A DNA stretch of 60,985 bases, filler included, from Sphacelaria rigidula (lineage: Eukaryota): the NCBI GenBank assembly GCA_964200075.2. It is 5 parts of 5 records of this genome, joined end to end, with 100 filler letters (N's around TTAATTAATTAA, not from the genome) between each part and the next. Parts side by side here need not be neighbours in the genome. Positions count along the whole stretch, not along the records: positions 36,655 to 48,770 come from CAXNAA020004108.1; 4 more parts are not named here. One strand, given 5' to 3'. The position numbers and the translations under genes were made by a program. A model generated the notes under the pieces. It was not told the DNA's origin, did no database searches, and saw nothing but the letters and a program-made list of their open reading frames with translations. This document shows positions 1 through 55,143 of the stretch, piece by piece. Positions within the stretch are counted from its first letter, which is position 1, and every line of letters starts with the position of its first letter.

Positions 1-3000
1 GGAGAGCCGGAGGCGTCGGCTGCCGACATGCCCCGTGAGCTCGAGACATCGGCGGAGGACGTGACGCAGCCAGTCGCTGCGGAGCCCACCGCCGACGCGT
101 CAGGAGAGCCGGACGCCTCTGCTGCTGAAGCGCCCGCTGCGCTCGAGACATCGACGGAGGACGTGACGGAGCCAGTCGCTGTGGACGCGCCCGCTGCGCT
201 CGAGACGTCGACGGAGGACGTGACGGAACCCGCCGTGGCGGAGCCTAACGCCGACGCGTCAGGAGAGCCGGAGGCGTCGGCTACCGAGGCGGCCGCTGCG
301 CTCGTTACATCGACGGAGGACGTGACGGAACCCGCCGCTGCGGAGCCCACCGCCGACGCATCGGGAGAGCCGGAGGCGTCGGCTGCCGACGTGCCCCGTG
401 AGCTCGAGACGTCGACGGAGGACGTGACGGAGCCAGTCGCCGCGGAGCCCACCGCCGACGCGTCAGGAGAGCCGGACGCCTCTGCTGCTGAAGCGCCCGC
501 TGCGCTCGAGACATCGACGGAGGACGTGACGGAGCCTGCTGCTGTGGAGCCCACCGCCGACACATCAGAAGAGCCGGAGGCGTCGGCTGCCGACATGCCC
601 CGTGAGCTCGAGACATCGGCGGAGGACGTGACGCAGCCAATGGCTGGGGAGCCCACCGCCGACGCGTCAGGAGAGCCGGAGGCGTTGACTACCGCCGCGC
701 CCGCCGCGCTCGGGACTTCCCCCGAGGACGTGACAAAGCCAGTGACTGCGGAGCCTACCGCCGACGCGTCAGGTGAGCCGGAGGCCTCGTCTGTTGAGGC
801 GCCCACTCCGCTCGAGACGTCGACGGAGGACGTGACGGAGCCCACCGCCGACGCGCCAGGTGAGCCGGAGGCGTCAGCTGCCGAAGCGCCCGCTGCGCTC
901 GAGACCAAGGACGTGACGGAGCCAGGGGCTGATGGTGAGCAAACGACGGTGGAGGCAGCATCAGTAGACGGTGAGCGTAGTCGGTCTCTGTCGGAGGTTG
1001 CGGCGGCAGGCATGGAAGTAGCGGCGGCCGTGGCGGACGCCGCCAAACAGCTTGCTTCTGAACCACCCATCGAAGTGGCAGCAGCGGCCACTGAAATCAG
1101 CGAAGGGATGCCTTCGGCCAAAGCAATGGAGTCGATAGCTGCGGACGCGCCCGTTACGCTCGAGACCATGGACGTGACGGAGCCAGGGGTTGATTGTGGT
1201 GAGCAAACGACGGTGGAGGCAGCATCATTAGACGGTGAGCGTAGTCGGTCTCTGTCGGAGGTTGCGGCTGCAGGTGTGGAGGCAGCGGCGGCCGTTGCAG
1301 ACGCCGCCAAACAGCTTGCCTCTGAACCACCCATCGAAGTGGCAGCAGCGGCCACTGAAATCAGTGAAGGGATGCCTTCGGCCAAAGCAATGGAGTCGAT
1401 AGCCGCGATGGCCATTGGACCTGGAATCGCCGCTGATGAAGTTGCAGTCGCGGCAGCCGAGTCTACTGCGGCCCGTAACACATCGACTACCGGTGAAGAC
1501 CCCATCGATAAAGAAGACCGTTCAGCTACCCCGGAAGAATCTACACAGCCTGCATCTACCGTCGCTGTTGCTGCGGCGGGAAATATCGAAATGGAAGCAC
1601 TGGCCAAAGACAACGTAGACATGCCGTCTTCTGCCCGAGAACCAACTGCGCTGGCAGTAAAAACAGTCGAGCCGGAGGTGGATCTGGTCGAAGAAAAACT
1701 TGCCGGCGAGGAAATTGCCGCTGGTGATACTAGTGTAGTAAAGACGGAGGCAGAAGCTGAGGTTGTGGTGAAACCCGAATCCGAAGACGTGGAATCGTTC
1801 GCTGAAAGGGCGGTGAAACCGGCGCAAGACGAACCTGTTGGGGAACTCGCTGCTGCCACCGATGAGGCACAGGCCACAGCGACGTCGTTCACCACTTGCA
1901 GCGCTGACACGGCCGATGTCGATTGTAAGGGGAAGCCGAGCGCCACAGAAGACGATGTACCCACTGCGGGGGAGGTTGAACCGGAGACGCCGGCGGCGGA
2001 GGGCGCAGCCAAGCCGGAAGAAATAGTTGTGGTTGAGACCGTCGCCACCGCCGATCCGGCGGAGTCCATGGGTGAAGCGGTCGACCTGGAAAAGTCTGCC
2101 ATTGCTTCCCCTGCCGCTGTTTCTGTTTCCACCGACGAAGAGGGCATGAACTCACCAGCGGAAGAACCCACGGAGGTGCCTGCGCCGGCGTCCGCACCGG
2201 TGGCTGATGCTGATGTCATCGAGATGGTCGAGAGGACGCTAGTTGATGATGCCCCACCCGCGGCCCCTGCCCATGTTACCCAGACGAGTGGTACGACGTT
2301 GATGAAGGAGGAAGGGAACGGAAAGATGGCGGTGGTGGCGACACCCAGGGAGAGTATGGAGGAGTCCTCACCCAGGGAGATCCCGGTGGAAGCCGCGTCT
2401 CCCGCTGCCACAGCAGCTGAAAATGACGGCCCTGAGGTCGAGAGCGCCACGGGTAACAAAGCTGCTGTTGATGATATCGCTGATGAACCTGCTGGGAAAT
2501 CGACCGACAGAGTCATTGTCGCCGACGTTGCAACCGCTGAGCAAAGTGGTGACGAAGCCGCGTCGGCGCTGGCGTCAGCACCGGGGGGAGAGGCAGTAGC
2601 AGTCGGGGAAGACGCTAGGGGCCTCAGCTCGAAGACTACCGAACCCATTAGCGGCAAAGACGATAAGGGGACAGCACCGAAGGAACTTGCTGACGGTGAC
2701 GAGATCGCGGCCAGTGAGGTTAGTCGTCTGAGGCATGCGAAGAAGCAGGGCTGGGAGGGAGGATTTGAGATTGTATTTTTCTTCACGGGTGTGCTGGTTG
2801 TCGTCTTCGGTTTCTTGGTGTTCAGCGGTGCCATGTATTTCGTATCCGGTAGATCATCTACTTGAGCTGTCGGTCGGTTGTTTGCTTCAGCTAGCTAGGG
2901 GTGTGGTGTGCGTTTATTTGTGATTTGAACAGAAGAGGAATTTTGAGATTACAAGTTATTTTATCATGTTTGATGGCGTGTCCTTTCTAGCTGTTGTCAG

Positions 3001-10352: not shown

Positions 10353-10360
10353 TTACGTAC

Positions 10361-12011
10361 CCCTGACGTTATGCTTTGGACGGCGTTTGGCAGGAACCTC
10401 ATGTCTATTGCGAGCAGAACCAGCAGTATCCCCGTGGTTCTCCACATTGAGGCGCCGGCCGATCTCCGTGAACCCATACGGCACATCAGGGAAATGTTGC
10501 TGTGAAGAGGAGAACAACAAACATTTATCAGAATCTCCGCGTTTACCCTCAGCTATCGCCGCCGCCTTTCCCCATTCTCGAGCGCGCCGCAGCACGTCTT
10601 CATAAGCGTCGTCGTTGACGACATTGCATTCAGATAACAAGATGTTGGCAAGAACCTCAGGCCGTAAGCTGTCCCGGCCCACCCCTTCCTCTAGCTTCGT
10701 GTTTCCTTCGACGGCCCTAGGGCCCGTCGCAGCCCGATCGAGGGTGTGGGTGCCGCCAAGTCGCCGAGTCTTCGAGATAAATGGCTGCGTTGCGATGGAT
10801 CTTCGTGTGTATTCTTGCTTGTCACTGTTGTCTCGAATTTTGAGCTGGGCTCTGTCATGCTCTGCCCATGCAGAAGTTGTGTTGTATCCTGCGTTGCCAC
10901 CAACACCAACACCACGGCTGGCACCGCAGTCGAGGGCGGAGTGATCGTTGTCTTTGTTCCCGTTCGGATCCATTCCGTTGCCGTTCAGATGTGTTTTGTT
11001 GCTGTTTGCAACAACATCCTGCCCCTGCCCCTCGTCACATTCCGCTCTCTCGTACCTTCTCACGACCACCTCTTCCCCGTCGTGTTCGCTTATATCTACG
11101 GCGTCAACAACTCCATTCGTCCGGTAGCAAGATAAACTAGCCCTCCACACTGCCTCTTCTGCTACGTTGGTACTGTTGACACCAAGGCTCCGCTTCCCCT
11201 CGTGTGGTGACTCGGTGTTCAATGCTGAACTATTGCTTTGAGGCGGTGACGACTCTTCGATTTCCATCCCAATAACCAAAGTTTGAGTATCTCGTCGTTC
11301 GGGGACTGGACCGTGATGATCAGCATCACCAGCAGGACGCGGAGAATGGGACGGTTTCGGGGATTCCGTTGGTTCGATCTTTGTGGGAGATCCGCATCGC
11401 CGATCTTCAGAGCCGAAGTAGCCGTTCGGGCAATTTGTCCGATCATGGTCTGCGTTGTCTGGGTCGTCGTTGTTATTGCGATCGAAGGAAGCTTCAGACT
11501 TTCTGTCGGTGTGCTGCTGTTGTTGTCGTGGTCGGGTGCCCACGGGAGTAGTGGTGGTAGTACCAAGGGTGCTGTTTGCTGCCGTACCGTCTTCGTGTAA
11601 GTTCGAGGTATTATTGACCCGCACTGGTTCTATGGACTCTCTGCTATCCTGGTGCTTGATGCCAGCGGAAGCAGTAGCATCAAAATGGAACCATCGATCG
11701 ATCCCTACTGTAATGCCGTCGTTGATATGGTTTCCCTCTTTGCAGTGTCTGCTCACATCCTCGGGTGCAGATACTGGTGGATCTTCGATCGTGGCGTTGT
11801 GGGGGTGATGGTTGTTGGCATCCTCGTCTCGTGAATCTGCGGAGCTCATGGCGCCGGTTCGCGGCATCGATGACCCGAGGAAAGAAGACATGGTGGCCGC
11901 TGTAGCGGCGGCCAATCGCTTTCGCTTCAGATGCGATTTTAGCGCCATCGGCCCCTGAGTACGAATATTTTGAAGCAGCACGTTCCAGATTGTGATAGTG
12001 GCAGATGGACG
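10361..12011 (-). CDS. Large exon (~550 codons) of an unknown low-complexity protein; upstream exons are outside the contig
   Basis: 542-aa ORF preceded by an in-frame acceptor (GCTGAC branch-like motif, then CTCGTAG|CGT at 12012/12011). Candidate donor G|GTACGT at 10361/10360; alternatively it terminates at TAA 10353-10355. Basic NLS-like stretches HLKRKR and PAKRRPK. Confidence 0.65.
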
Positions 12012-12118: not shown

Positions 12119-12218
12119 NNNNNNNNNNNNNNNNNNNNNNNNNNNNNNNNNNNNNNNNNNNNTTAATTAATTAANNNNNNNNNNNNNNNNNNNNNNNNNN
12201 NNNNNNNNNNNNNNNNNN
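12119..12218. other. Artificial 100-nt contig linker (N..TTAATTAATTAA..N)
   Basis: The same linker occurs four times; the core puts stops in all frames. Confidence 0.97.
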
Positions 12219-24336: not shown

Positions 24337-24436
24337 NNNNNNNNNNNNNNNNNNNNNNNNNNNNNNNNNNNNNNNNNNNNTTAATTAATTAANNNNNNNN
24401 NNNNNNNNNNNNNNNNNNNNNNNNNNNNNNNNNNNN
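24337..24436. other. Artificial contig linker
   Basis: N..TTAATTAATTAA..N, 100 nt. Confidence 0.97.
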
Positions 24437-36554: not shown

Positions 36555-36654
36555 NNNNNNNNNNNNNNNNNNNNNNNNNNNNNNNNNNNNNNNNNNNNTT
36601 AATTAATTAANNNNNNNNNNNNNNNNNNNNNNNNNNNNNNNNNNNNNNNNNNNN
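36555..36654. other. Artificial contig linker
   Basis: N..TTAATTAATTAA..N, 100 nt. Confidence 0.97.
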
Positions 36655-36741
36655 CCTTCACAAAAGAAAGCGACGCACAAAGAAAAAAAACAAGAAAAAA
36701 AAAAAAAAAAAAAACCCCCCCCCCCCCCCCCCCCCCGCCAC

Positions 36742-36885
36742 CTGCTCATATGTTCGCACCGAAAGAGCAGTGGCCTGCCCTGCCGTGGTTCCCTTGGGAG
36801 AAGCTGCAGGGTCTACTCCCTCCTCGGCCCCGTCGCAGTCCAACAACAAACAGCCATCGCAAGCAGCGGCGGCCACGCCTATCAT

Positions 36886-36928
<43 letters not shown>

Positions 36929-39900
36929 TCACAAAAAGTTCTAGTGGTGGCTGAAAAAGGTATGGCAGGGGTGCGGGTACGGCTCTAGATTATTTCAGAT
37001 ACATACCCCTGAATATGCAGTCGTCTTTCCCTTGTCATAACAGGGAGGTGTATAACCTGAGGATACGGTGCGCCCACCCCTCCCCCACCCACCGTGGAAA
37101 AACCTGGTCCGAGGGAATCCCGGCGTGCTCCGGCTTTGTAGGGGCGGACCCCCCTATGGGATTGGCGTCGGTCGGCGATGACGCTGTAAAACACCCCACT
37201 CACTGCGTCAGCTAGGCAACCAGGTTACCGACTTTTTTTGCGCGCTTGCGTTTTTTTTGGAGTAACCATGATGGTGGTCGAGCTAGATCATGTTGTGCGG
37301 GGTGGAAGAACCTCAACTCCGCACAAAGGGGATGATCGTAGTAAGTAGTGCTTGAATAGTGAAATACCCATGAGGCGGTGTATAAGCTGTGGCGGTCTCC
37401 GGAAGTGGCGATACCACAAAATAAAGCAACTCATTGAAAACTGTCATCCAAATGCAAGATTATCAGTGCGTTTTGGGCCAGACAATCTTAGCAGGATGCA
37501 GCGACTCGCCGAACACACCACGGCGCTTCGCGCTTGGTGATTGAGTGCGAGCCTGATCCGGCCAAAACCTGGCGTGCTCCGTCTCGGGTTTGTAGGGATG
37601 CGAGGTCAGTGGTCTGATGACTATGGCATGAGTACACCCACCGTAGAAAAATACGCATCTTGGACTGGGTCATGAGATATTTACAGGGTAGCATAAATAC
37701 ATATGTCAAGTACTACGAGTGATTCACGGCCTATTAGTCTGTTTTGTTTTGTTTCGTTTTTGCAAGGCCTCCTTGCAGGAAGCCATATGGCAGGGGCCTG
37801 CCGTTTTGTCAAGACTTCCCTCGTCTTCAGTTACAGCGTCGATTCTCTTCATTCTACTCCCCTACTTCTCCTCTGTCGACTTCCCTCCGTGAGTGCTCGG
37901 CGTATTCAAGTTGGGGTAGGTTCATCTTGCCACCTCGCGAATCAAGTAATCTCAATGTGCGACGATACAGAGGTATGCTTCAAACTATTCACCAGCCAGG
38001 ACGTGATGAACTTGTTGACCCTAGAGGCGTAGCTCATAAGAGCATGGCGGCACGTGTACTGCGCCAGGATGATGGGGGCTTTTAGTAGGCGCGATCCCAC
38101 ACTGTCTTAAGCAAAGCTTGCGAACGCTCGAGGCACATCTCCTTAAGGACCGCCGCGAGGCAGTTTGGCCGAGCCTCCGGGTAACCGGCACACGAACCCG
38201 CTTGCGGGGTAAGCATACACACATGTATTTGTCATAATTCAACTGCTCCCTCCCCTCCTCGAGAACGGTCCGTAGTCCCACGGGATCAACCACTTGTATC
38301 TATTTCCCGACATTCGCTGTGCAACATACTGTCCAGTGTGAGAACATGACTATCGGCACTCTCGTGGGCCGTCGACTGCGCTGGAATTATTTCCCACCTC
38401 ATGTTTCCACGCTCCCCACGGCCGACACCAGTATACTACGCCATTATTGTCGGGATTCAAGCACACTAATTGTACTCCGCCCATACCGACCGGTGATGTA
38501 CAGAATAAACCACTAGGATCCGGCGGTACAATATATTCTCGAAGAAATTGGTTCGGCAGCCTAAGTACATCCGCACGGGCTATGAACGTCTTATTCCCAT
38601 GTGCATCAATCGATCAACGAATCAATCAATCAAGTTCAGTTTGGATGGTGAGAAATGCCTCTGGGATCTTTTTCAACTCTTGAACCACAGAGAACGTGAT
38701 TATTTCCCACTGTGCCCGTGCGCCTGTATGCGAGCATTTGTGACTTGATCTCAACATGTGCAATTCTTCTTATCCTGAAGATCCCAAGAAGCTTCGCAAT
38801 CAAAGGGTCATCATCTAGCAAGGCGCTAAAACGTGTATTCCTTCAATTAAAAAATGTGCGTTACCGTCAGTCACCACCGGGGGCTCAGTTGTTGATCTCT
38901 GGGCATACCGCAAGCTTAACACGAAACTTGTAGAAAAATGATGGTTTCCCCTCCCTCCCCCAGCTATCTCGGGATCTCTTGCGAGAAATTGCTTCTCAAA
39001 ATTTGAAGCCTCACCGGTAGTTTCGCCTCGACCTAAAGCACCTCCGACAGGAAAAGACGTGCCAAACGCTTTGTTCAGCAACGTGGATCTGCTCAGCAGA
39101 AGAAAAAACACAACCAGGGGAATAAGAAAACCAAGCACAGAGGTAAGCAAGTTAGTGAATCCTTGGAGCGGGAAGCACGAGGTCACCTTTCCGGAACAAC
39201 ATGGGCTGCTGACCTTCAAATTCGGAACAATATCAGCGGCTGAATTTTTAATTTCGGAACAAAATCGAAGATGATAAACCTTTCAACTTTGGAGCACTAT
39301 TGACAACTGACCTTCGTTTTCTAACCACATCGACGGCTCACCTTCGATTCCGGCACAGTGCATAAAAGTCTGACGCTACAGTACAGTCGAGCAGCTTCTC
39401 TCTGTTCGCATTAATTATTCCTGATAACAAGGGTGATATCGACAATTTATCTGTTCCGTGGGTCCCAATGTCTGACATGATCCACTGTTTTAATCGAACA
39501 TGTTTTCTTGTATTACACGGTTTTTGGAGTCGATCAAAGGAGCATCCATACACACGGAAATAAGTCACAAGACGTCGGGAATGGCGAACACACACACACA
39601 TACATACACGACTTGTGTAGTTCCCCTTTTCGGCCCTTCTCTAGCCTCTTCTGGCTCGTGTACCATGTAATCGATGATTTTTTTTTATTATTTGAAATTG
39701 TCTCATTCTTATTATTCCGAGTCGGACGTGTGACTTTGTGTGTATTTATTTTCGCTGCTGTGTTAGTAGCCCCATCCTGCGAGGCGCCGTGTTTCCAATT
39801 TTCGTGGCAGTATTTTTTTACATTTTCGGTTGTATTCTGTCTTTTGATGTCGCGGCTTTGTGATCACGAGCGCTCGATTTCTGGAATAGGGCTACTGTTA

Positions 39901-41726
39901 AACAACAACGACAACGACAACAGCACGCACAGATATGGAGTCACTGTAAAATGACCACGGTAATTCGCACTGGGAAACCTCCCTTGGGAAAAAACACACA
40001 CACACAAAACACGGAATACTTACTTTCCGCTCCCTTTGCTTCCGAGGACTCCAACCACGTTGATTGGCTTTCCTGCAAACCCACTGCTTTTTCATTTTTT
40101 TTGTGCACGTGAAGAAGAATCCCATCATCATTACGGCAGCCACACATTCCCATCCACCATTGCACCCCGAAGGCGGAGAAACCAAACAACAGCGTACGAG
40201 ACGAAAAAGAACAGATAACAAAGAGGTATGGCGGATGCTCATAAATGAGAGCCGGCACAATAATGGGAGAAGGATACAAGTATAAGGTAGAGGAAAAGGT
40301 CGACGACGTCGAAGAGCAAGAGAGGAGGCACCAAGGCCAATTGACATTGCCGCCTTCCTGCCGGGAGCTATAGCCCCTTTCTCCTCTTCAACCGATAGTT
40401 TCAGGCAAACAACAAAATACTCACACTCTAGATTCAATTCCGGACTCTCCCCACATCTTTTTTGTGCGGACAACAACATGGTAAAGCTGTGTTAGAGTAG
40501 ATGATAACACTATAGCAGCCGTAGGATTACCCTTCTCCCTCCAAACATTGAGAGCTTTGGGACTACGATTCCTGAGACCACTTATTACGACGCCCCTTTT
40601 CAAGCGCTAGCGAAGTTGAGCTCTGCAAATGTTGCTCGTCGCGAGTCAGGATATATCACCCAGTATTCGGCAAGGCTTGACATGCACATACGTCAAGTTT
40701 ACTTTTATCTTCGTGTTTGCCCCGTTCCAGAGTTTTCTACAGCGAGTGTTTCCGTTTTGTTTACCTTGCGTAGGTCTATCTTATGGATAATGACCACCAA
40801 TGAATGCCTCGGGGATCAGCCCAAGTGCGACCATCCTTGACCCAGTCCAATCAAGCGTATGTGGCTAGGAGACGGAGAAACTCATGATGCACCAAGAGCT
40901 GAAAACCGTTGTTTGAATGACACGTGCTACTATAATTTCGTGAGTATAGCTAATTCATGACAAAAATAACATGATGTTTAAATACGGAGGGTCCTGAACA
41001 CATAATTTGTTCATACTCAGTGGATACCCAGACCTTATTTCGTAACAAAATTACCCGCTGGCATTCAACGCCGGTAACCACGACGCTACAGTAGAGTCGA
41101 GCAGCTTCTCCCTGTTCACATGCATCATCCCCAATGTCAGCACACATGCCATGCTTTCCATGTTCACTACGTTCCTGATTCATTATTCTTCCATTCGACC
41201 AAATCCGTTATTTTCAAACATCCACAACAATGGCCGTCAATGCAAGGGTCGATCTCCAGCTCTCGATGTCCAAGTTCCTGACGCCGGGGATATGTATCTG
41301 GCTCCAAACCCGGCCCGACATCCTGATGTCGTGATACATGGATATATCACGATACTTGAAATATCATATTCCAAAATCCCATCCTATAGGATCCAAAACT
41401 GACCTGACATGAAAACATAAACGATATCGTGATGTATCGATGTATCTATATGGGCTGATACCTGATGCATATCCCTAGTTGGCGTACCTAAGAAGCGAAG
41501 TCATCTCGCTGGCGGATGCGAGTTTTCCCGACGCATCCACCAGCTCTACCACGCTACCTCCCACTGTCGCAGCCGCCGCCGAAGCAGCAGTAGCAGCACA
41601 CGACACCCGGGACACGCCCCCTGCCGCCAAGAGCAAGACTGAGGTGGTAAAAGCTAGCGGTGTTCGCCGCCGCCGGGGCATCTTTGCTCGCGATTCGTCT
41701 CGTGTTCCTGCTTGGGGCGGCGCCAT
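36742..41726 (-). CDS. SEY1: RHD3/Sey1 (atlastin-like) GTPase, 5' five exons, 3'-partial: 41726-41488, 40571-40531, 40072-40024, 39088-39015, 36878-36742
   Basis: Phase-consistent splicing (2,1,2,1,0) gives VVELVDASGKL...PINVVGVLGSKGSGK|STLLNKAFGTSFPVGGALGRGETT|GVAAAACDGCLLLDCDGAEEG...RTYEQ. This parallels RHD3 QLIDGDG...GPQSSGKSTLLNHLFGTNF...GRSQTTKG...MDLEGTDG...FEKQ (G1, G2 and G3 motifs). Confidence 0.85.
36887..36924. repeat. (CA)19 microsatellite next to the exon-5 acceptor of the SEY1-like gene
   Basis: Direct read. Confidence 0.95.
37490..37642 (+). repeat. Dispersed repeat family B, copy 1
   Basis: GCGACTCGCCGAACA.ACCACGGCGCTTCGCGC...GGCGTGCTCCGTC.CGGG.TTGTAGGGATGCGAGGTCA...TGAGTACACCC is shared with 48988-49195 (-) and 57015-57215 (+). 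Confidence 0.8.
38010..38215 (+). repeat. Dispersed repeat, homologous to 13075-13280
   Basis: Colinear similarity with the contig-2 copy. Confidence 0.7.
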
Positions 41727-42199
41727 ATTTTCGCTGTGCGTACATGTATTCAATCACACGGGGGGGAGGGGAAGGTGAAGGGGGGAGATGGAAACGTTGG
41801 AAAAACCTTCTTTACGGTGGACACGTCAAACACTTCCCCCGAAACGAGTTTTGGATATGCATGATACATGGTTTTACATTGATTGATTATCTTCAACTAG
41901 ATGCTGCTACTGGGTATGTTGTAGGTTGGAAGAATTGGGAACGCCCTCTTTTCGAACGACGCTTCCGACATGCTGCATTGTGGTGGGCCGGAGGAGAAAT
42001 GGGCGTGTGGTCGGTTGATTGGTGCGTTATTGGTGCGTGTTGACGCCGAACTGGAGCAGACTCACCGATGGCAACACTGAGTGATTTTGCATGTTTCGGG
42101 GTGGATGGTGAAGAAAAGGTGTGTGGACGAGCGAGGGTGTACGGAGTAGGTGCGTTGCATAGAGCGTCAATATTGACAAGCTACAAAGTGAGCTTGCGG

Positions 42200-44400
42200 A
42201 CACGCTGCGCTAGATTAGGGAGGTGATCCCGACGAAAACGAGAGCTCAGCGCAAGCCCCACAGCAACGTCTCGGTTGAGTCAACGTGCCCTGAATACGGG
42301 AGAGGAGACACACAAATGCATAAAATGCGCGCAAATGTCCATGTATCGTACTGTCGAGAACGAAAGCTCCCACATCTGTTGCAATCGGCCGGACGACCAA
42401 AATGTGGTGCAAGATATTAAATTTCGATGCGCATCTCGATGTAAGACGCACAGCCGTACATATCCATCGCAGACTGCCTCCTTCAACACGGTCATGATCC
42501 ACTGCCTTCAGGGGAAGTAGACAAGAGGACACGAAAACGACATGGAGAATCCATCATCCGATATGTGTTGGCCACAACAAACTAGACCAGAAATAAGGCT
42601 GTGTGCTCACTGGACAACAAAATGGCACACCGCACTGTACTGCAGCAGCCAGAAGATGGGCTACCGTCGGAAACGGAGAATAACACCACCCCTCCGCGCA
42701 CGGGCAACCCGTCCGGCTGTGGCGTTCATCAATCTAGACTTCTTCGAAACTGCGGTGGCTATGCCGTAGGAATAGATGTCGACGGGAAGCTCTTGTTGAG
42801 ATCTAGTACTATTTGGGGTATTTTGGCAGTTGCAAGGTATTATCTTATCTTCTATGTGCGATGAAACTCGGGTTGAACATGTCATACCTCTGTCACGATC
42901 ACATGTATGAGGGGGTGTTATACTTCGCCACTTACTCACTCACCAAACCACGACGATAGAACCCACATTGCTGTTCGTGTTGGAACGAGAAACGGTTGGC
43001 TCTACCAGCAACACTTCCAGCAGTCTACAAGAGGGAGCATGAGAACAAACGCATTCCAGTGTGCAAGCATCCCCCTACCTTCTCCGTGTATCGTATGATG
43101 TCAACCTTGTTGGTTTCGAAGTTACCCCTGCTGTGTCCGCACATTTTGGCGGGGCAGCCTGCGGAAAACAACCTCCTCCAACATACAACCAGCAACTTTG
43201 TCGTTTTTGCTCTGGTCTGTATTCTTGCTTGCACGCACAAATATAGAGCATTTTGCCACTATACATAAGCATGGGTACATAGTGCAACCTCAACCTGCTG
43301 CGATCTCACCCGCATCCCAAATTTGTACTTGCAAGTGCTACGACGGGGCCAACATGTCCAAACACTGAAAACCTCAACATCTCGAACAACACTCAGGAGC
43401 ATGATCTCACAGCCAAACAAGGCCCTACAACTTGAAACAGGACCTTACCTGCTGTCCAGCAGAAAACTCACCAGTCGATGCCCGCTCCTCTGGTTTCACC
43501 CTAGAGTAGAAGCCCGCCGCCACTGGCTCCTCCGCTGTGGCTCTACCTCACGCACGTGTGCACACTACACCTAACTCTGAGAAGCTTCGCCACGCGTCAA
43601 CCTATGTCTGCTCTATGACCGACGGGATTTTCACGTTTGTAGTCTAGTGTGATGATGAAAAAGACATTGCTCGTCCCCGGTTGTGTGTTGGATGCGTCCC
43701 CTGCATACCAGACATACAGCTAAGGATTGAGGTGGACAGTGGGGCGTTTGCACCTCTCTCAATCAGAGAGAATATTTACGGAAATTTCATAGCTTCGGCG
43801 TGGAGAAAGGAAGTGCACGTATCTGTTATACTACGAGTACTGTGCGAACCACACACGAGACACGATGTCTTCAAAGATAGCAAAGCGAATGATGGCGAGG
43901 GTTGACGACATGGTATCGCGAGCTGCAGCATCAGTGAATGAACAGGTAAGTGAGCAGTGTACGCTATCGATCATAATGATCACGTTCATGATATGAGATA
44001 GATCGGATAGGATCGTGTTTGTGAGATGGTATGAAATGGTAGGACGTCGGAGTGGATGACGTTGAATCCTTTTCATGAGAGGGTGTTATACCACGTCTCG
44101 TACCGGCTAGTCCTTGGAAGACACCCAAACACTTGCCAACCAACGTCTTCTCCACGAACACAAGGTAGGCCCAGACAAATATTGTATGTATTTTCTACTT
44201 ATTATGTAGGGAATGAAATGGCGTGGCTATTCTCTCAGTGCCGGGTCGTGATAGGCGATAGGGGCATCTTAAACAAAGGGTCTCAAAGTGTCCAGGATTT
44301 CCTACCGCAATGTGGTTGATGTCTCCGGAAAACAGTTACGCCGCTGATTTTGGGTCGTCTCCTCGTAGATGCGCCTCATGTTCTTGGACGTGGTGTATAT
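42200..44400 (+). mobile_element. Possible decayed non-LTR retrotransposon of the restriction-like-endonuclease type (CRE/R2-like)
   Basis: Plus-strand remnants 'ASFNTV' (~42480; compare NAFNxV) and 'ARIC...HTRHDVFKD' (~43815-43880; compare the CCHC finger followed by RH). Frameshifted; boundaries approximate. Confidence 0.35.
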
Positions 44401-44899
44401 TGCCAATACATTAGTCGTGTGCATTCAGCACTAACCCGCGGCAAGAGCGAAGCATTATTCCTAGCCAACGCGAAAAGTTGAGATGATATCATGAGAAGAG
44501 GTGAGGGGAGTTGTGTCATTTACCGTACCGCTCATGGTCGAGGGAATGCGATTTGCTCTCCGCAACCTCTCCATGTGCCCCGACAATCGCGGGACACTTT
44601 ACATTCGCCCCATTTCTAGGGCTCATGAAGATGAGCACACCATTTTTTGTTCACGTGTCCCTGAATCATGACCAAGATTACCAGTGTCTTCGCATCTCCT
44701 CCTCCACTCTGTTTTCTCGGTTTCCTGAGCCCCCCCCCCCTATTTAATGCCTCCACATTGTCGGAACATTTTTTCTTAGGTTTGCTCCAATTTCTTACGA
44801 CATTTTCGGGATCTGGGAGGCAAGAGCCAAGACACATATTTTTGTAGGCAAGCCCAAGATCACCAGTATCATGCCGTTCGGAGGTTCGATCGTTATATC

Positions 44900-46350
44900 C
44901 ATTTTCTTCGAGTCATCAGCCGCGGGGAGTACCCGGGGAACCCACATTCTTCCGCAGAGCCTGTACATAGACTGCCATCGCGTCGACTTTTGTCATTTTT
45001 TGTCATCAAGTCTCGCTCTGGCATTGTTGGACGACGGAAACCAGGATAATGACTGCGCATATACTGTCTGTCCTCGAACACAACGCGCTTTGCCGTACCT
45101 AGTTTTGACTGAGAAGTTGGCCACCGAGGCGCGAGGGTGTTGTACCGTTGGTGAGCGTTTGTCGTGTCAGGGTTAACGATATAGCATGGTCGTTCGGCCA
45201 GGCCTGAGCAGGAACGGCCATACCACGTCGATAGCGCCACATCCCGTCCGCTCTGTCCGATTAAAGTACTATGACGCACGTTGAGTGATGCCCCCTAATC
45301 ACGAGAAATCGACAGTGACTGCGAAAATGGAACACCAAGAGCTAGGACGTTCCAGATATATTCCTTTGGCACAAACCTTTACGCATCGCAATGCATCACT
45401 TTCCGGCACCAAAGTGGAAAAAGAGACAAACCAGGAATAAAAATTGGCCCGTCCCCGGATTTTCGGAACAAATTTGAGTATTCTTCTCCGTGTTTGGCAA
45501 CGCCGAACTCGACGAACATCTTCGTAGAGCTCTATGCTTTCTGTTTGTTTGGAGCTATCCAACCAATTGGAATTAGCTTCGACATAATACTCGCAAAAGT
45601 TGATGTTCGACGGATGTGATCGAGTTACAATGAATTGGAGCTACCCAACCAAGTGGAATTAGTTTCGACATAACACTCGCAAGAGCCGGTGTCCGAGGGA
45701 TGTGACCGAGTTCGATCTGTGGTCGGTTGCTGGCTTCTCTTTGTCCATGTAGTCCTCACAGGCTGCATAAAATTCCGGCATGCTATCTTCTTCGTCGGCC
45801 GCACCACCCTGTCGGCCTTGCGGATGCTGTTGCTGCGCTCACCTAGCCGCGGGTGCCTCCGAAGGAACAAATCGAGCTATTTTCGACCTGAGTCTACAGT
45901 GGGATCCTATGGCACCGGTCGGTTGTCGCTGCAGAGTGCCATAACCGCCTGTTTCAGGCCATCTCTATTCAGGCCCGTTGACGCGCTGCGGCAAATTTCA
46001 CCATATCTTCGATGGAATTTTCTTCCTCCGTCGACATTACAGTACTCGGGCCAACCCTGCCAGCTATGCCCACGCCTGCAGCGAACCAAAGGAGATGTCG
46101 GAGGTCTTGGCAGCATCATGGAAAGTCATGCGACCGCTGCGTACCGCTCCCATGGCCTCTGCTGCACGTTCTGGGTTCACTCTTACTCTCTGCACGCTTA
46201 CCAGCCGATCGACCAAAAGGCTGATTTTGGAGGAAGACACACACGCTTGTTCACAGTGCTGTGGGATGGCGTGTTTGTGTTTTTATTCAAGAGGCACGTG
46301 CAGTAGCTCAAAAGAAGCGTCGTGCTCTTGTGTCCACGTAGGAAAAACCA
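44900..46350 (-). mobile_element. Decayed LTR-retrotransposon integrase region, Ty1/Copia-like
   Basis: Minus-strand 'YVDTRAR' (~46335), 'PEYCNVDGGRKF...EIC' (45907-46119 ORF; compare SDxGxEF), then 'KGIYL' and 'GRDV' as in the Copia post-integrase region. Confidence 0.45.
45549..45712 (+). repeat. 86-bp-period tandem duplication
   Basis: TTGGAGCTA.CCAACCAA.TGGAATTAG.TTCGACATAA.ACTCGCAA...GGATGTGA.CGAGTT at 45549 and 45635. Confidence 0.88.
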
Positions 46351-46519
46351 GAATGCAAAACGGTCAATATTTCGCGGACTTATGAACGATAAAAAATTGT
46401 TTCCTTCATTGGTACTGTTCCGTGATAGGGACGTTTACTCAAGTTTCGATTGATTTCAACTCGAACTTTAACCGCAGCTGAAGCGGGACTCCCCCTCAGC
46501 TATACACGACTCTCCCCTT

Positions 46520-46852
46520 CTTTTTTGTATTCCTTTTTTTCTTGTGTCAGTTCAAAACCCTCTCTTTTTTCAGGAGGACTTCCGTGGGGATAAGGGATCA
46601 ATCCGTCTCGCCCCGGTGAACGCCTTTTCGTTTCAGTATCGCGGATGGGATCAGCACTCCACTCCCGCAGCGTGTCGACTGTCAAAAAAATTCAGTCAAA
46701 TTAACTGTTATTGCTACTCACGTACGTAGGTCCTCACGCTTTCGGTTACGTACGTCAGATACTTTTGAAAACAAAAGTCAAGCTAGGCGCATTTGGCGGG
46801 GGTTTTTTTCCGACCCAAGGTTGTCAGTCGTACCGCTCGACCACTGGGGTGC
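46520..46852 (-). mobile_element. tRNA-derived SINE family 2, diverged copy
   Basis: Reverse complement aligns to the 48455 copy (GAAAGCGTGAG...ACGTGAGTA...GCTGA.CC.ATCCGCGA...ACCGGGG.GAGA.GG.TTGATCCCT). Confidence 0.65.
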
Positions 46853-47991
46853 GCTTATAGTTGAAGGTTTATTGACGTGTATTAGGGGGTACTATCCTGC
46901 GCCTTTTACAGGGCTGAAGCCCGTGCTCGTTTACGATGCGCCGTAGTTACTGTACCATAAACTGAGCTCTATGCGCCTTGCCCGAAGACTGTTCGGTACA
47001 AGCGGGGATGACGCCGACGGCAGTGGAAGCTGTTGGGTGCTTCAGAACGATGTGCCACGTCGATACGTATACCCTTCCAAGAACGGCACCACTGTTCGGG
47101 TGTATCTGTAAGCAGCAAAAACAAGGTCGGCCTTCGGTGTGTCTTAACTGAATGAAACGAAGAAAAAATCGACCTTGAAAAAACGTAAAAGTTTTTCTTG
47201 TCAGCACGAATCTTCTACATTGCACCGCGATGTCTCTTACTGTACAGCGAGGTATAAAAAAAGGGGCGAACCACGAGGAATTAAACACGTGGTTGTTGCA
47301 GACCTCTGTGTTTTCCCGTCATGGTTCGCGCAAAGTTTTGGGGGCCTTCTCAGCCCTCCGGATCGTTATACCATGGATTGTTCACGCGCGCAGATGGTCG
47401 ACCAGGCCGACCGGGACGGCCTGTCCACGTCGCCGTGATGACGATACTTTTTTTATGTTGGATTATTTTCCAAGCGCGGATATAAATCAGTGTGCATACT
47501 GCACGTCATCCCTCTGCTGTCTCGAACGAAACCTCACCTTGTCTGATGCGGTTTCATTACTGTATATCAGGTGCGATTAGGTCAAGCGGGTGTGCCCAGG
47601 CAAGACCAGCAGCGGACGTCACAATGTCCACGATACGAGCTGGTATATGCTGCACAGTTGTGACCCCCGATAAAATTTCCTGAATCTTGCATGAGTGACA
47701 AACGCCTGTTTAAGTCGGGGAAAGCGATGTTGTTGGACAGCCAGCCCCAGCTCTCAATAATTTTTTTAAACGATATTTTCAAAAGTAACGTTTGATTGTC
47801 TTCGCCGGACTCGTCGTTATAGGTTATATCGTGTAACGATATCACATCGTGTAAGGTCATTATTCGACAACTAAGTCAACAGGCCAACGAATCAATCAGT
47901 CGATCAAAAACATCCAGTATTTTGTATAAACGTTGGCGTGTTTCTATATCGTGTTTTTGCTTGAAAAAAAAAACGCTAACAAAAATTGCAG

Positions 47992-48128
47992 GCGGGAGCT
48001 GGTGTGAGTTCAAAGACGCGGAAGAAGACCGCAAGGCGTGCGCTTCTGGCGGGGTTGTCTGAAGGAGGCAGCAAGAAGGCTGGTGCAACGGGAGGGGCAC
48101 TAGGGATAGGAGCATCCAAGTCCGGCAG
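47992..48128 (+). CDS. Candidate orphan internal exon (AGAGVSSKTRKKTARR...SKSG), unknown protein
   Basis: GCTAAC branch point, TTGCAG acceptor, CAG|GTGGGT donor, and only one open frame. Confidence 0.4.
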
Positions 48129-48454
48129 GTGGGTGTTTCAAGCGATCTGGATTCAACGGAAGTGCCCTTGGCTTGAAGATGATCGCGCGTGCCGTGCAGC
48201 AGCTTGCAATACCTCTCTGGGGCGATTCAAATTCATTTGATTTCGTATGTTTAGCATCCATCTATGAACGGCTTATATCAGTTGTTACGTTTGTCGTAGC
48301 TGTTCATCCATACTTCAGCGGAGGCGTGAGAAAGCTGGTTTGCTTCAAGACGTTTACGCGTACTCTATGAACAACCATGTACAAGTGCCACATGAATATC
48401 CCAACCCAGAAGAGGCATCGCATGCTATCCCCGTTGAAGTACAGTTGCCCCCGC

Positions 48455-48770
48455 GCCCCGGTGGTGTAACGGTCTGACTGTCGCCACAAAGGGTGGAGAG
48501 AACGAGGGTTCGATTCCCGATGCGTTGGGTTTTTCTTCGTTATATCTGATTTCCACCGTGGAAAGCGTGAGAACGTGAGTAAGCAAAGTAGTTGACTGAG
48601 TTTGTCTGACGAGAGTTGACGCGGTGCCGGAGCGCTGACCCAATCCGCGAGACCAAAATGCAAGGCGTGTACCGGGGAGAGAGGGGTTGATCCCTCGAGA
48701 TCACGGACTCGTCCCGAGGAAGGGGAGGGGTTCGAAGTGCGACAAATGAAGAAAAATATATAGTACACCC
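48455..48770 (+). mobile_element. tRNA-derived SINE family 2, running to the contig end
   Basis: GCCCCGGTGGTGTAACGG (A box) and GGTTCGATTCC (B box), followed by a non-tRNA body. Confidence 0.75.
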
Positions 48771-48870
48771 NNNNNNNNNNNNNNNNNNNNNNNNNNNNNN
48801 NNNNNNNNNNNNNNTTAATTAATTAANNNNNNNNNNNNNNNNNNNNNNNNNNNNNNNNNNNNNNNNNNNN
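48771..48870. other. Artificial contig linker
   Basis: N..TTAATTAATTAA..N, 100 nt. Confidence 0.97.
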
Positions 48871-50981: not shown

Positions 50982-51645
50982 TCACTTGTCTTCGTCTCTG
51001 TACATGGTTTCGACGTGTCCGTATTCGGTTCTGGGACGCTCCGAGAATGGTCATGTTGCGATTTTCACGTTTTCGCGCTGCAGTTCACATATGGCCATGT
51101 GTGATTTCTTTAGGCACAGCCGACCAATGTTTATTTCCATTCAAGCACTGGCCGGGGTCGATCACTTGGATGATAATGTCACGTCAAAGGCCCACAATCG
51201 GGCCAATATGTGCCGTTTCGACATCAAAATGTGCCAACTACGCAGAATTTTTCCGAGCAGGGTTTGATATGTTCCGTTTTGAGGAATTCTGGCTGCGGTT
51301 CCGGGCATGTGTCCCCTGTCGAGTAGCTTTACACAAGTCATCACCCAAAACTACGGGTGTCTTTTGGCCGTTTGACGGCATTCACGCGACACTATTGCCG
51401 GGTTCAACGATGGGCACGTAAAACTTGTAGTTTGTGTCGTTCGGAGGAACGACCATGTGAGAACTTCCGTCGACCCTCAAGAGCCCTACTCTTTTTTCGT
51501 CCTGCATTCTTTTTCAGGCGAAATTTAATCGAAAACAGTACTCAACAAGAGTCGAAAAAGACAGCGATGAACACACACGCACACACACATGACACAGCCG
51601 AACGAAACGCGAGAGAAAACGACAAAACACACATAGCGTACGTAC

Positions 51646-54165
51646 CTCCTTGAACGCCGACCGCATCTCGTCGTTGCGCAAGATCCACCCCATGGTCTCC
51701 GTCCCATTTTCCTTGCAAAAAAACGGTGAATCCAGCAGCTTGCAGCAACCCTGCTCCACCCCGCCCTCACCTTCACCATCACTTCCTCCCTTCTCGCAAC
51801 GACTCCCCAGACCCGCAACGACGTGCGGCGCCTCCCCCCATCTGTCCGCCCTACTCGATGACTCTTGAGGGGTCAACCTCGCCGTGGACGTTGTTTCTCC
51901 CCCGAACGACACGCCTCCGAAGGTATCATAAGACCTGGCAATGAAATCCTCCTCCGTCGGATAGCTGTCCAGCTCCTCTTCCCACACGTGGCCATCTACG
52001 TACCTCTTGCCTAAGGAGCGCGGGCCGGGTTCGGCGTCGGAGTCGGGGGCATCGTCGCACGGGAGGCTGCTCGGGGCTCGAGAGCTCTGGATGTCGTCAT
52101 CAGCTCCCGCCTGGCTGGCGGCGGCCGCGAGGTGTCGCAGACGCAAAATCTTCGAGCTTGTGCCTGAGGGACTGTCAGCACTTGGAATAGCCTCAGCCGG
52201 GGCACCAACATCAGTGGTGGCGGACGCGGCGGCGAAACGATCGCCCCTCGACCGCGTCGTCGACTTGACAGGTGCGCCAGGAGCACTTGTACCCGGCTCA
52301 CTTGAGTGTCTGCCATTGCGGAGGCCTCCAAACCTCATCCGAGATATGATGCCGGAGGCGCTGCTGCTGCTGCGGACTCTCGATATCCTCTTGCCTTGCG
52401 TGCCGACGGCCGCCTCTTTAGACGACTTCGAGCTTTCACTCTCCCGCTCCCGTCTGATGCTGCCGCCCCTGCCGCCCCCAACTGCTCCTCCTGTCGATGA
52501 AGATGCGTTCGAAGGTGCTGGCGATCCGCGCATTGCAGTAGCGAAGTGCGCGAAAGAATTGCTCCAAATTCGTCGGTGACTCGTCTCCTCGTGACGGGGT
52601 TCACATGTATCCTCCGTGTCCGTCTTTTTGGCAGCCACGGCCTCGCCATCGCCGAAGCGAGTGTATCCTTTTCCCCTCTGCCTTCGCCCTTTCGCGTCGA
52701 CCCTCGCCACTGTCGTGGCCGCTGCCGCTTGTGATGGACTATTTCGGTCGAGCAAGTTCAAGTCATCGTCTTCGGCTGCCGGCCGTAACCGGGCGGACGT
52801 GAAGTATCGCTCTAGATGTAACGTATCATCCGCCGATCTATCGCGGGCGCTCTCGAGACAAAACGGATTTTCGGTCATGTAGCCTTCCTGCCGTGTCCGC
52901 TCGTACATCAGCAACGCGTCGTCATCCTCCTTAACCTCACCTTCAGCACCACCACCACTGACATCACCTCGAGTGTCACCTTCGTGCTGTCGACCCCCGG
53001 CATCGGCCTCGGCACTCCGCGCATCGAGAGAATGCCCCCACGGTTGTTTCGCCGTACGAACAGTATCAGCACCGTCAAGCGAAGCGTCTTCGTCCACCTG
53101 TAGCGACAATCCAGAAGCTCCTCGCCCGGACGGCTCAACCGGAACAGGGTCCGACTTCTGCGCCTCGGCCGCTATCACTCGAGCCACGGAATCAGATGCA
53201 TCCCCTGTTGGTGATACTACCACCGAATGCGTCCGCAACACGTCTTCCGTAGGAAACTCCGGTACGTCTTCAGTGGGAAACGCCGAGGCTGATCCGGACT
53301 CTGCAGGGAGCCCTGGATCGGCCCCGGAACCCACCGAATTTTCCCACGTTGATGACAACAACGACCCAATCGACATCGCCGCCTGTGCTGCCGCCACTGC
53401 TCTACCCCTCCCACGGTCGTCCTCCCCCCGGCCACCTCCAATGGTCTCATGGCTATGGCATGTATAATCATGAGTACACCCCTGGTCACCTGCACCATCA
53501 CGGTCCCTCCATGCCCATGCCCACAGCACGGAGGGCCCGGGGATGCCTGTCCCTGCAGGAGGGGCTGGTCCCGGTGCCGACATACCCTTCGCCAGCGGCG
53601 GCCTTCCCGAGGGAAGCTTGGCTCCCGGCGCCGCGGGGGGTCGAGGAGCAGGGGCTGGCGACGGTTTGGATTCGGCCGAGAAGTTGGAAGACAGCGATCG
53701 CGTGCGGATACGCGTCTCCTCCGCCGCACCCCTTGCCCCCGCCGGTGTCTTGTCAACGATCATGGTGGAAGGTGGTGGCAACGGTGGCGGCGGCGGCGGT
53801 GATGGTGATGTCGATGTGATTTCGGGAATCATCCAAGAGCGGGCACGCTCGGCGCTGTTGTGATTTGCCTGCGCGACCGTCCCTTCCTCGATCTGCCTCG
53901 CCCGTCGCCTCCCACCCCCCGGTTGCTGTACTGTTAGTGGGGGAACTTCCGCCGGTGGCGGGAGGTCGTCGTTATCTCCGGCCGGAGAGTTAGTCGTGGT
54001 TCCGGGGGAGCGGGGGTGCGAGGGGAGGCTAGAGGTGGCGGCGGTGACCGGGGGATCTGCTGCCATGTCCACTAGAGCCGCCTTTCTGGTAAATGTTGCA
54101 GCATCGCCTCCGTGGAATCGAGGTGGGGGTGGGGGCTTGGAAAAGAAGGAATTTCGGAGTCGCAT
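51646..54165 (-). CDS. Large first coding exon (840 codons) of a Pro/Ser/Gly-rich, probably disordered protein; later exons not found
   Basis: ATG at 54165, GC-rich open frame, phase-0 donor GAG|GTACGT at 51646/51645, followed by T/GT-rich intron-like sequence. Confidence 0.75.
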
Positions 54166-54203
54166 TGACGCCGTTGCGTGCGTTCTGTTCGTTTCAGGTT
54201 GGG

Positions 54204-54208
<5 letters not shown>

Positions 54209-54243
<35 letters not shown>
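54209..54243. repeat. (TG)n microsatellite 44 nt upstream of the ATG at 54165
   Basis: Direct read. Confidence 0.95.
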
Positions 54244-54251
<8 letters not shown>

Positions 54252-55143
54252 CAGAACGAACAAGCCACGGTGTGACGGGACGCGTGTACAGGAGGGAGAA
54301 CCGTCGTTGAAACGCATTGCAACGGAGAGGAAGACAGAAACAGGAAAAGACAGAGGGAAGATGAACGACGAGGAGAAGGCGACAAGCCGCATACGCAAAC
54401 GCAAAGACAGCGGGGACGGAGCACAGTACGTGGGGAAAGAGTGGCGGACAGAAGGGAGGGGAGGGGGGGGATCAAAATGAGGAACGGGAGTAGGACGCAC
54501 AAAGTTCAGCCGTCACAGGCTGCGTGAAAAACACCGTCACCTGGCGAGGACACAGAAAAAGGAGCGAGGAATGGAATACCCATCGGTCTGTAAAACGCCT
54601 GACCGATCTCACCATTGTGCGGCGATCCGTGCAAAACGCGAGAGACACAACGTACGTGATTAGGTGATTCAATGGACGGTTGCGCTCAGATGACTTGGTG
54701 TCATCTCAACGATATGACAGGCTCTCCATTTGAACAACATCTACATATACATTTGGTCCGGAAACACCTAGCCATTTTTTTGGTGAGTTGCAATCTCATG
54801 GTACAATCACGCGCCGGTCACTCGAAATATCCGTGGATAACATATTCATTTCGTTGTAGATTCAGATGCATTCTTACGCTAAAATGAAGAAAAAAAATGT
54901 TTGTGCTTGGCCGCGTACGAAAAAAGTCACTGCATAAGGTTAATAGTAATCGCTATTTTTACAACAACCTTGGTCGTGAAGTTCTCCCCCGCTGGTCAAC
55001 CACTACCCAAATTGGCACATTAGCTGGGTATGAGACGGGCAGCATGTGCACCAATCTGCGGTCGTCAGCGCGGAGTGATGCTACGGTAGGGTTGCACTTT
55101 TTGACCGAAAATGTTTCTTGGGGTGCTGCACGGATCATTTCGG

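Follow-up and report, generated by a model that had tools for sequence, protein, structure and literature searches.

The window analysed here is a stretch of 60,985 bases from Sphacelaria rigidula (assembly GCA_964200075.2). It consists of five unlinked pieces of ~12.1 kb with artificial spacers between them (44 N, TTAATTAATTAA, 44 N). The minus strand of the fourth piece (36655-48770) carries a gene that runs off the low end of the piece, and the view of it is confined to the first 164 codons. The evidence supports a highly divergent Sey1/RHD3-type dynamin-like GTPase, a presequence-bearing paralogue and not a textbook SEY1. Of this nucleus-encoded gene at most the 5' third is visible.

The exon structure follows from Logan contigs of four runs, X1-X4. 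In each run a single contig (1933-2726 nt) covers 41488-41734, 40024-40083, 39014-39088 and 36759-36877 at contiguous record positions. Two of the joints are reported explicitly and skip 1404 and 935 nt, with CT..AC on the plus strand and thus GT..AG on the minus strand; the third, of 2136 nt, is not listed and is derived solely from the contiguous record positions. With canonical splice sites the coding exons are 41726..41488, 40083..40024, 39088..39015 and 36878..36760 (239, 60, 74 and 119 nt), separated by introns of 1404, 935 and 2136 nt. The spliced coding part has 492 nt, that is, 164 codons from the ATG at 41726. Coding sequence in the window extends to 36760 and GTGCGA comes next, so that the end at 36742 given in a preceding sequence-only reading was 18 nt too far. 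The same reading had the P-loop split across small exons, and the split indeed lies between exons 2 and 3.

The X1 contig extends by 2135 nt on the 3' side, outside the window, and by 90 nt on the 5' side. The 5' loose end (90 nt, at 41734 in X1 and X2) was shown for 30 letters, which match 43473-43502 with no mismatches and are followed by a GTGAGT donor. The 5' untranslated region (5'UTR) is itself spliced, across ~1.7 kb. The ATG-bearing exon starts at 41733 or 41734 with an AG acceptor ahead, the UTR junction being ambiguous by one G. The 98-nt UTR rebuilt from window coordinates contains no ATG, and a TAG lies in frame 39 nt ahead of the start; thus the ATG at 41726 is the first possible one. 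The second ATG, at 41681 (Met16), is not present in the relative P0001 described below, and the next in-frame Met after it is residue 74, within the conserved start of the family. The exact removal of four GT..AG introns gives the contigs the appearance of mRNA. The gene is expressed and spliced, the RNA kind of the runs being guessed. A transcript check had been proposed for the exons and the start at 41726; with that qualification, the exons are upheld by the contigs of all four runs and the start by the 5' ends of X1 and X2.

The runs show some variation in the coding exons. Three coding sites of the X4 contig depart from the window, namely 41692 (Ser12Leu, in the n-region) and, silently, 41649 (Phe26) and 36832 (Asp140). 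Further, unlisted differences of this contig number one in exon 2 and two in exon 3. X1 and X2 agree with the window at 41692, 41649 and 36832. X3 agrees at 36832 and 41649 and ends at 41686, so 41692 is uncovered.

On profile evidence, residues ~60-143 are homologous to Sey1/RHD3 GTPases at the family level. The spliced 164-residue protein scored 41-42 bits against a profile of 39 canonical sequences, and none of 500 shuffled versions exceeded 5.9 bits. A profile of 23 PTF-type proteins gave 48.6 bits, and one of 72 canonical proteins that carry C-terminal transmembrane (TM) segments gave 41.5 bits. These scores of 41-49 bits were obtained with profiles built here, and the 164 residues span under half of the RHD3_GTPase domain. 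The profile alignments are colinear with the protein from residue 60-62 (exon 1) to residue 132-143 (exon 4), the PTF-type profile reaching 143. The P-loop GxxxxGKS and the following T-L-L-N-x-x-F-G-T-x-F signature are present at residues 93-112 (exons 2-3) and are aligned at high posterior to both the canonical and the PTF-type profiles. The scores and shuffles thus bear out the initial assignment of an RHD3/Sey1-type GTPase.

The family profiles also single out this gene in the window as a whole. Among 2583 stop-to-stop open reading frames (ORFs) the sole scorer was the exon-3 ORF (E 7e-5 for the PTF-type and 0.003 for the canonical profile; 19.0 and 13.5 bits, respectively, for this ORF alone). 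Its sole Pfam match was RHD3_GTPase, at 10.5 bits and E 0.39 for this single exon, the curated cut-off being 42.4 bits. Pfam gave nothing relevant for exons 1, 2 and 4 taken singly, and a PDB sequence search with exon 3 gave no matches. No further exon was found in any of the five pieces when full-length PTF-type and canonical profiles were compared with the 2583 ORFs, which returned exons 3 and 2 only.

Relatives were gathered in several ways. A degenerate DNA pattern for the signature yielded at least 116 metagenome loci, nearly all of them canonical Sey1/RHD3; such a scan cannot show the absence of close relatives. The translation P0002 of one signal-bearing locus, L071, seeded a HMMER search from which the best 150 of 786 matches at E<=1e-3 were considered. 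A word-based search with P0136 gave 71 matches, none closer to the S. rigidula protein than 42-56% over short stretches, and added 63 proteins. A search for orthologues with the exon-3 region gave none among 19 candidates. The signature pattern also matched very-large-GTPase (URGCP/GVIN-like) genes at L017, L046, L072, L084 and L114. The latter have G-R-C-T-x-G after the signature, and the P-loop signature alone does not separate the two families.

The motifs are strongly modified in comparison with 206 Sey1/RHD3-type proteins gathered in this analysis. The second variable position of the P-loop is Q in all 206 and K in the S. rigidula protein. The exon-2 letters are the same in the X1-X3 contigs (no other letters), the single unlisted difference noted above being that of X4. 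The following residue is Gly, as in a few relatives; it is Ser in Candida Sey1p, where it is equivalent to the atlastin Arg finger according to the available part of the publication (PMC4576867). The G3 motif is DxEG in 189 relatives and DxQG in 12, five being unmatched; here it is DCDG, which retains the general DxxG. Thus the divergence of G1 and G3 noted earlier is confirmed, with K against Q in 206/206 and DCDG against DxE/QG in 201/206. Switch 1 contains T-T-x-G in 193 of the relatives. The S. rigidula protein keeps the Arg and Thr-Thr and has the x residue deleted. The Lys of TTKG had also been reported as missing. It is indeed absent and the Arg is kept; however, a Lys occupies this position of TT-x-G in 89/206 only and hence is not defining.

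With GxxxxGKS, the switch-1 threonines and DxxG surviving, the protein likely binds nucleotide. Normal GTP hydrolysis appears doubtful, and the P-loop Q-to-K substitution together with DCDG suggests that control of hydrolysis is altered or lost.

The N-terminal extension comprises 57 residues, the conserved family start being residue 58. Residues 1-23 include RRRR, with acidic residues among the first 12. The hydrophobic core (residues 24-38) has a mean Kyte-Doolittle hydropathy of 1.92 over 15 residues and 1.56 over 19. A small-residue site S-C-A ends at residue 43 and fits the -3/-1 rule. It is followed by a 14-residue Ala/Ser/Thr/Gly linker without charge (residues 44-57). This agrees with the description made from the sequence alone, namely a basic n-region, an h-region, S-C-A and a linker without acidic residues. 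In periplastid signals the residue at position +1 of the cleavage site is non-aromatic, and the predicted +1 residue is Ala.

A search with exon 1 gave a single match, P0001, an unspliced genomic Logan gene call that is 65% identical over 79 residues. It is colinear with the S. rigidula protein precisely as far as the exon-1 donor. Conservation covers the Arg cluster and the hydrophobic core and is lower in the linker, and 18 of the last 19 residues are identical. At the predicted cleavage site P0001 has Thr or Ala at +1 and no Phe nearby. The extension is conserved in P0001 and, by hydropathy and the small-residue rule, has the architecture of a signal peptide, which it is predicted to be. 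As the positive charges lie ahead of the hydrophobic core, the GTPase domain is predicted to be translocated.

Similar architectures were observed among the gathered proteins, all six tested of which exceed the Pfam RHD3_GTPase cut-off. A PTF/PPP1-type C-terminal patch was seen in 23 comparison proteins. Proteins that have the patch and no TM segments come from Rhodosorus, Porphyridium, Cyanidium, Agarophyton, Pyropia and Rhodelphis; a patch-less relative is from a glaucophyte. The red-algal and glaucophyte relatives (P0012, P0015, P0030, P0100 and others) have no N-terminal extension. An added N-terminal hydrophobic segment was found in Nannochloropsis oceanica, N. salina and an MMETSP transcript, and these proteins (P0004 and P0005 of Nannochloropsis, P0136 of MMETSP) combine it with the C-terminal patch. 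In the signal-bearing proteins P0022, P0084, P0096 and P0136 only 3-15 residues separate the signal from the conserved start, some of these spacers being equally uncharged.

Two groups among these relatives have further features of their own. The eustigmatophyte locus L071 (1304-2609), P0004 and P0005 have a recessed hydrophobic segment at residues ~25-50, a PPP1-type C-terminal patch and, between the hydrophobic segment and the GTPase domain, ~120 low-complexity residues rich in Ser, Glu and Thr. The only annotation of one member of this group is 'gtp binding protein sey1', and two cluster members are wrongly labelled EcfA2. P0022 (Prymnesium parvum KAL1519129.1), P0084, P0096 and P0031 form a separate signal-bearing Sey1-like group with DxQG in G3. 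P0022 has both a signal and a TM hairpin at 559-603 and would thus be a membrane-anchored Sey1 behind a signal peptide. No mention of this type was found in the parts of the literature consulted.

Periplastid proteins related to Sey1 have already been published. According to the available part of Moog et al. 2011 (PMC3101018), nucleus-encoded Phaeodactylum tricornutum homologues of the Guillardia nucleomorph ORFs 261, 532a and 534 localised to the periplastid compartment. In the portion of Zauner et al. 2019 at hand (PMC6559170) these nucleomorph ORFs were recognised as Sey1 homologues, and a role in plastid division was proposed. Sheiner et al. 2011 (PMC3228799), as far as the text was accessible, describe PPP1 as essential for apicoplast import in Toxoplasma, conserved in diatoms and brown algae, and periplastid in Thalassiosira. 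Both the diatom and the Thalassiosira proteins gave periplastid 'blob' signals with green fluorescent protein in the excerpts of PMC3101018 and PMC3228799. Baek et al. 2022 (PMC9407449) report that in red-algal PTF1-3 the GTP-binding half is Sey1/RHD3-like and the Gln-rich C-terminus PPP1-like, that these proteins have no TM segments and bind transit peptides, and that diatom PPP1 has no GTP-binding domain. Red-derived complex plastids perform inner-membrane import without the green-lineage Toc34/159 receptors, and the Sey1-like PTF/PPP1 proteins are the current candidates (PMC9407449). A 2025 paper in Molecular Biology and Evolution (PMC12412216, available in part) places three red-algal sey1-like paralogues, PPP1 included, in cryptophyte, alveolate, stramenopile and haptophyte (CASH) nuclear genomes. 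A search for literature linking the periplastidial compartment to root hair defective 3 found none, and a search for literature from 2022 on PTF1/PTF2/PPP1 found nothing relevant beyond Baek et al. 2022. Published work on function in the relatives suggests preprotein import or targeting, or plastid division, and not membrane fusion.

The statement that Sey1-type proteins normally have no signal thus holds for the canonical fusogens of the endoplasmic reticulum (ER), but the periplastid Sey1-like homologues do carry signals. Neither is the component a possibly undescribed one, as had been suggested: publications on nucleus-encoded periplastid Sey1-like proteins go back to 2011, and their likeness to Sey1 was recognised in 2019, 2022 and 2025. 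As the kind of component is already published, this is not the discovery of a new one; the S. rigidula protein is a new, unusually divergent member.

The evidence on the subfamily, PTF/PPP1-type or membrane-anchored, leans to the PTF-type, a tentative assignment. The best BLAST match is the PTF-type protein P0012 (42% over 113 residues); P0177 shows 43% over 88 columns. In the careful maximum-likelihood tree the S. rigidula protein and 25 rows of the PTF clan lie on one side of a branch with support 82/82, and the FastTree support is 79. The tree has 67 rows. It omits the cluster duplicates P0153-P0168, the very large GTPases P0076 and P0113, and proteins lacking a recognisable P-loop or having too little sequence, and it retains 26 of ~120 canonical rows.

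Judging by homology and architecture, the best reading of the gene is a periplastid Sey1-like GTPase of the known red-algal-derived kind, and we hold it somewhat probable. The periplastid compartment is the most plausible destination because signal-bearing homologues occur in an ochrophyte and a haptophyte and the diatom homologues were localised there. The complex plastid of the host is itself inferred. Of the earlier proposal of a paralogue in the ER lumen or the periplastid compartment, the presequence-bearing paralogue stands, with the latter location the more plausible by its signal-bearing homologues; the undescribed membrane-remodelling component does not. The extension would act as an ER-type signal peptide. 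The Arg cluster would stay cytosolic, the 15-residue core probably being too short for a stable anchor, and the GTPase domain would cross the outermost plastid/ER membrane. By analogy with the diatom, eustigmatophyte, haptophyte and apicomplexan relatives, the protein might then be passed into the periplastid compartment. It would belong to the red-algal-derived Sey1-like set (red-algal PTF1-3, PPP1, diatom sORF261/532a/534) and would bind GTP through the intact GxxxxGKS, the switch-1 Thr and DxxG. It could deliver preproteins to the inner envelope pair; a role in plastid division or in membrane dynamics is less likely.

Several observations weigh against this reading. The end branch of the S. 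rigidula protein in the maximum-likelihood tree is 2.67, the median being 0.37, and 114 columns do not suffice to place a protein on so long a branch. A tree with the protein outside the PTF clan is kept by the approximately unbiased (AU) test (2.4 log-likelihood units better, p 0.61), and the quick tree leaves it in a polytomy. The diagnostic C-terminus, a Q-rich patch or a TM hairpin, lies past the 164 visible residues; likewise the G4 Arg-Asp, the three-helix-bundle stalk and the C-terminal TM hairpin would lie past the piece end at 36655. The signal obtained with the canonical profile is concentrated in residues 83-125, the flanks alone not being significant. The transcript basis is that of four runs of one study, whose kind, 'RNA?', is a guess. 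The diatom study localised 22 of 40 predicted periplastid proteins to that compartment, 10 being secretory and 6 mitochondrial (PMC3101018, available in part). No basic residue occurs in the 24 positions past the predicted cleavage site, the net charge being -1 over 25. A net positive charge is expected of a transit-peptide-like region. In mitigation, the linkers of other signal-bearing family members are just as short.

Other destinations have to be considered for the same extension. The protein may reside in the lumen or membrane of the ER or chloroplast ER and never enter the periplastid compartment, the hydrophobic segment being either a plain signal peptide or a type II anchor that stays uncleaved. 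The short uncharged linker after the core, with its net charge of -1 over the next 25 residues, agrees with this, as does the secretory localisation of 10 of the 40 predicted periplastid proteins in the available part of the diatom study (PMC3101018). However, the PTF/PPP1 C-terminal patch, linked to plastid import, is present in the signal-bearing homologues, and the 19-residue hydropathy of 1.56 is weak for an anchor. To our knowledge, there is no nucleotide supply and there are no partners for a GTPase domain in the ER lumen. This too counts against ER residence, which we consider unlikely. A chloroplast or mitochondrial presequence in a host with a primary plastid, or with none, is improbable to a like degree. 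In one form, resembling the Mgm1/OPA1-type dynamins, an Arg-rich matrix signal would precede a hydrophobic sorting segment. What recommends it is the abundance of Arg, Ala, Ser and Thr in the extension and, in the same part of the diatom study, the 6 of 40 predicted periplastid proteins that were mitochondrial (PMC3101018). On the other hand, a hydrophobic core of 15 uninterrupted residues straight after RRRR resembles a signal peptide, acidic residues stand within the first 12 positions, and the red-algal and glaucophyte relatives have no extension, the identified bearers of one being ochrophyte and haptophyte.

More unlikely still is that the gene is the host's ordinary, fast-evolving SEY1 for ER fusion, with an N-terminal anchor or an irrelevant leader and a cytosolic GTPase domain. 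The AU test is compatible with a placement outside the PTF clan, and the canonical profile still gives 41.5 bits. Yet canonical proteins are extremely conserved (Q in 206/206, DxEG or DxQG in 201/206) and have end branches of ~0.4, and here the branch is 2.67 and both motifs are broken. Moreover, the positive charges on the N-side of the core predict translocation of the C-terminal part, and the next in-frame Met, residue 74, lies inside the conserved start. A bolder variant of the periplastid assignment also has a small probability: a lineage-specific, rewired Sey1-like GTPase of this compartment, with the P-loop Gln, present in all 206 relatives, replaced by Lys and the switch-2 Glu lost. 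It might be a GTP-locked or pseudo-GTPase scaffold for preprotein hand-over or, should its C-terminus carry a TM hairpin like that of P0022, a true membrane fusogen shaping the periplastidial reticulum.

A presumably full GTPase head behind a predicted signal peptide is a data point on the retargeting of the family after secondary endosymbiosis. It comes from a lineage with long introns and with no annotated orthologue in the collections searched. The broken 'invariant' residues are natural variants for testing what the GTPase cycle does.

Table 1. Features of the window, with the strand and the basis of each assignment
Feature	Coordinates	Strand	Basis
3' end of non-coding 5'UTR exon	43472..43502	-	exact match of contig loose end, X1 and X2; GTGAGT donor
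5'UTR intron, ~1.74 kb, GT..AG	41734..43471	-	contig loose end and splice sites
Exon 1: 7 nt of UTR, codons 1-79 plus 2 nt; ATG 41726-41724	41488..41733	-	contigs of 4/4 runs
Signal-peptide-like presequence, residues 1-43; core residues 24-38 at 41613-41657	41598..41726	-	hydropathy, RRRR, S-C-A
Uncharged Ala/Ser/Thr/Gly linker, residues 44-57	41556..41597	-	translation; least conserved stretch against P0001
Start of conserved Sey1/RHD3 N-terminal region, residues 58-79	41488..41555	-	profile alignments start from residue 60-62
Exon 2, 60 nt: beta-strand 1 and larger part of P-loop	40024..40083	-	joints in 4/4 runs; family profile alignment
Exon 3, 74 nt: P-loop end, family signature, switch 1	39015..39088	-	contigs; top match in whole-window scan
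Exon 4, 119 nt: strand 3 and G3 DCDG; gene continues past piece	36760..36878	-	contiguous record positions in 4/4 runs
Repeat element(s) in intron 3, outside gene product	37033..37788	.	short-contig matches
Spacers; neighbourhood across them not to be assumed	12119-12218, 24337-24436, 36555-36654, 48771-48870

The introns contain several repeats. The intron-3 repeat is matched by hundreds of short contigs at 95-99% identity, with a summed word depth of up to ~2e5 and many loose ends at 37436, 37501, 37539 and 37630; it has no Rfam match. A 50-nt direct repeat with 86% identity, probably a dispersed short element, occurs in intron 2 (39372-39421) and intron 1 (41082-41131). A (TG)19 microsatellite at 36887-36924 ends 8 nt ahead of the exon-4 acceptor. 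At 36683-36736, near the piece end and 24 nt past the exon-4 donor, the gene strand carries a G22 run and then T20 and T8 runs. Elsewhere in the window, very long open frames of 552-985 codons are seen at 1-2894 (both strands), 10356-12011 (minus) and 51517-54471 (minus), in GC-rich stretches (62-65% GC in the first and the last of the three). One of these frames encodes an acidic Pro/Ala/Glu repeat, and none of them matches a Pfam family. No Pfam families were found in ten long ORFs elsewhere in the window, and Rfam and tRNA scans of the window gave no matches.

The S. rigidula protein shares features with four known systems. With canonical Sey1p, RHD3 and atlastin (PF05879 and PF20428) it shares GxxxxGKS followed by STLLN-xx-FGT-x-F, the switch-1 Arg and Thr-Thr, DxxG and the conserved short N-terminal lead-in. 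The canonical proteins have no signal and are anchored by two C-terminal TM segments, facing the cytosol, whereas the S. rigidula protein begins with a signal-like presequence. It also breaks the family-invariant P-loop Gln and has Gly where Sey1p has Ser.

The group of Prymnesium P0022 is similar in that a signal is followed by the conserved start within 3-15 residues, and its identity to the S. rigidula protein is 40-42% over 92-111 residues, the BLAST alignment even spanning the end of the signal. However, the P-loop Gln is retained in that group and its G3 is DxQG, P0022 has the TM hairpin at 559-603, and the S. rigidula protein falls outside the group in every tree.

The periplastid Sey1-like proteins (sORF261/532a/534 and PPP1; P0004/P0005 and P0136) are likewise nucleus-encoded, with a hydrophobic N-terminal or recessed signal and a GTPase domain of the RHD3 type; the likeness to the diatom and apicomplexan proteins is by published description. 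Unlike the Nannochloropsis proteins, the S. rigidula protein has no 150-residue acidic or low-complexity spacer.

The PTF1-3 proteins of Cyanidioschyzon merolae and their red relatives are represented here by P0012, P0015 (Rhodosorus), P0030 (Porphyridium, 'SEY1-like'), P0064 (Cyanidium) and P0120 (Agarophyton). These are cytosolic and begin at the conserved domain, whereas the S. rigidula protein has a presequence of 57 residues and has the P-loop Q, the switch-1 spacing and the G3 Glu all altered. With these PTF-type proteins it shares the N-terminal Sey1/RHD3-like GTP-binding domain, as seen in the top profile score, the BLAST match and the position in the best tree, and the FGT-x-FPV form of the signature is common to both.

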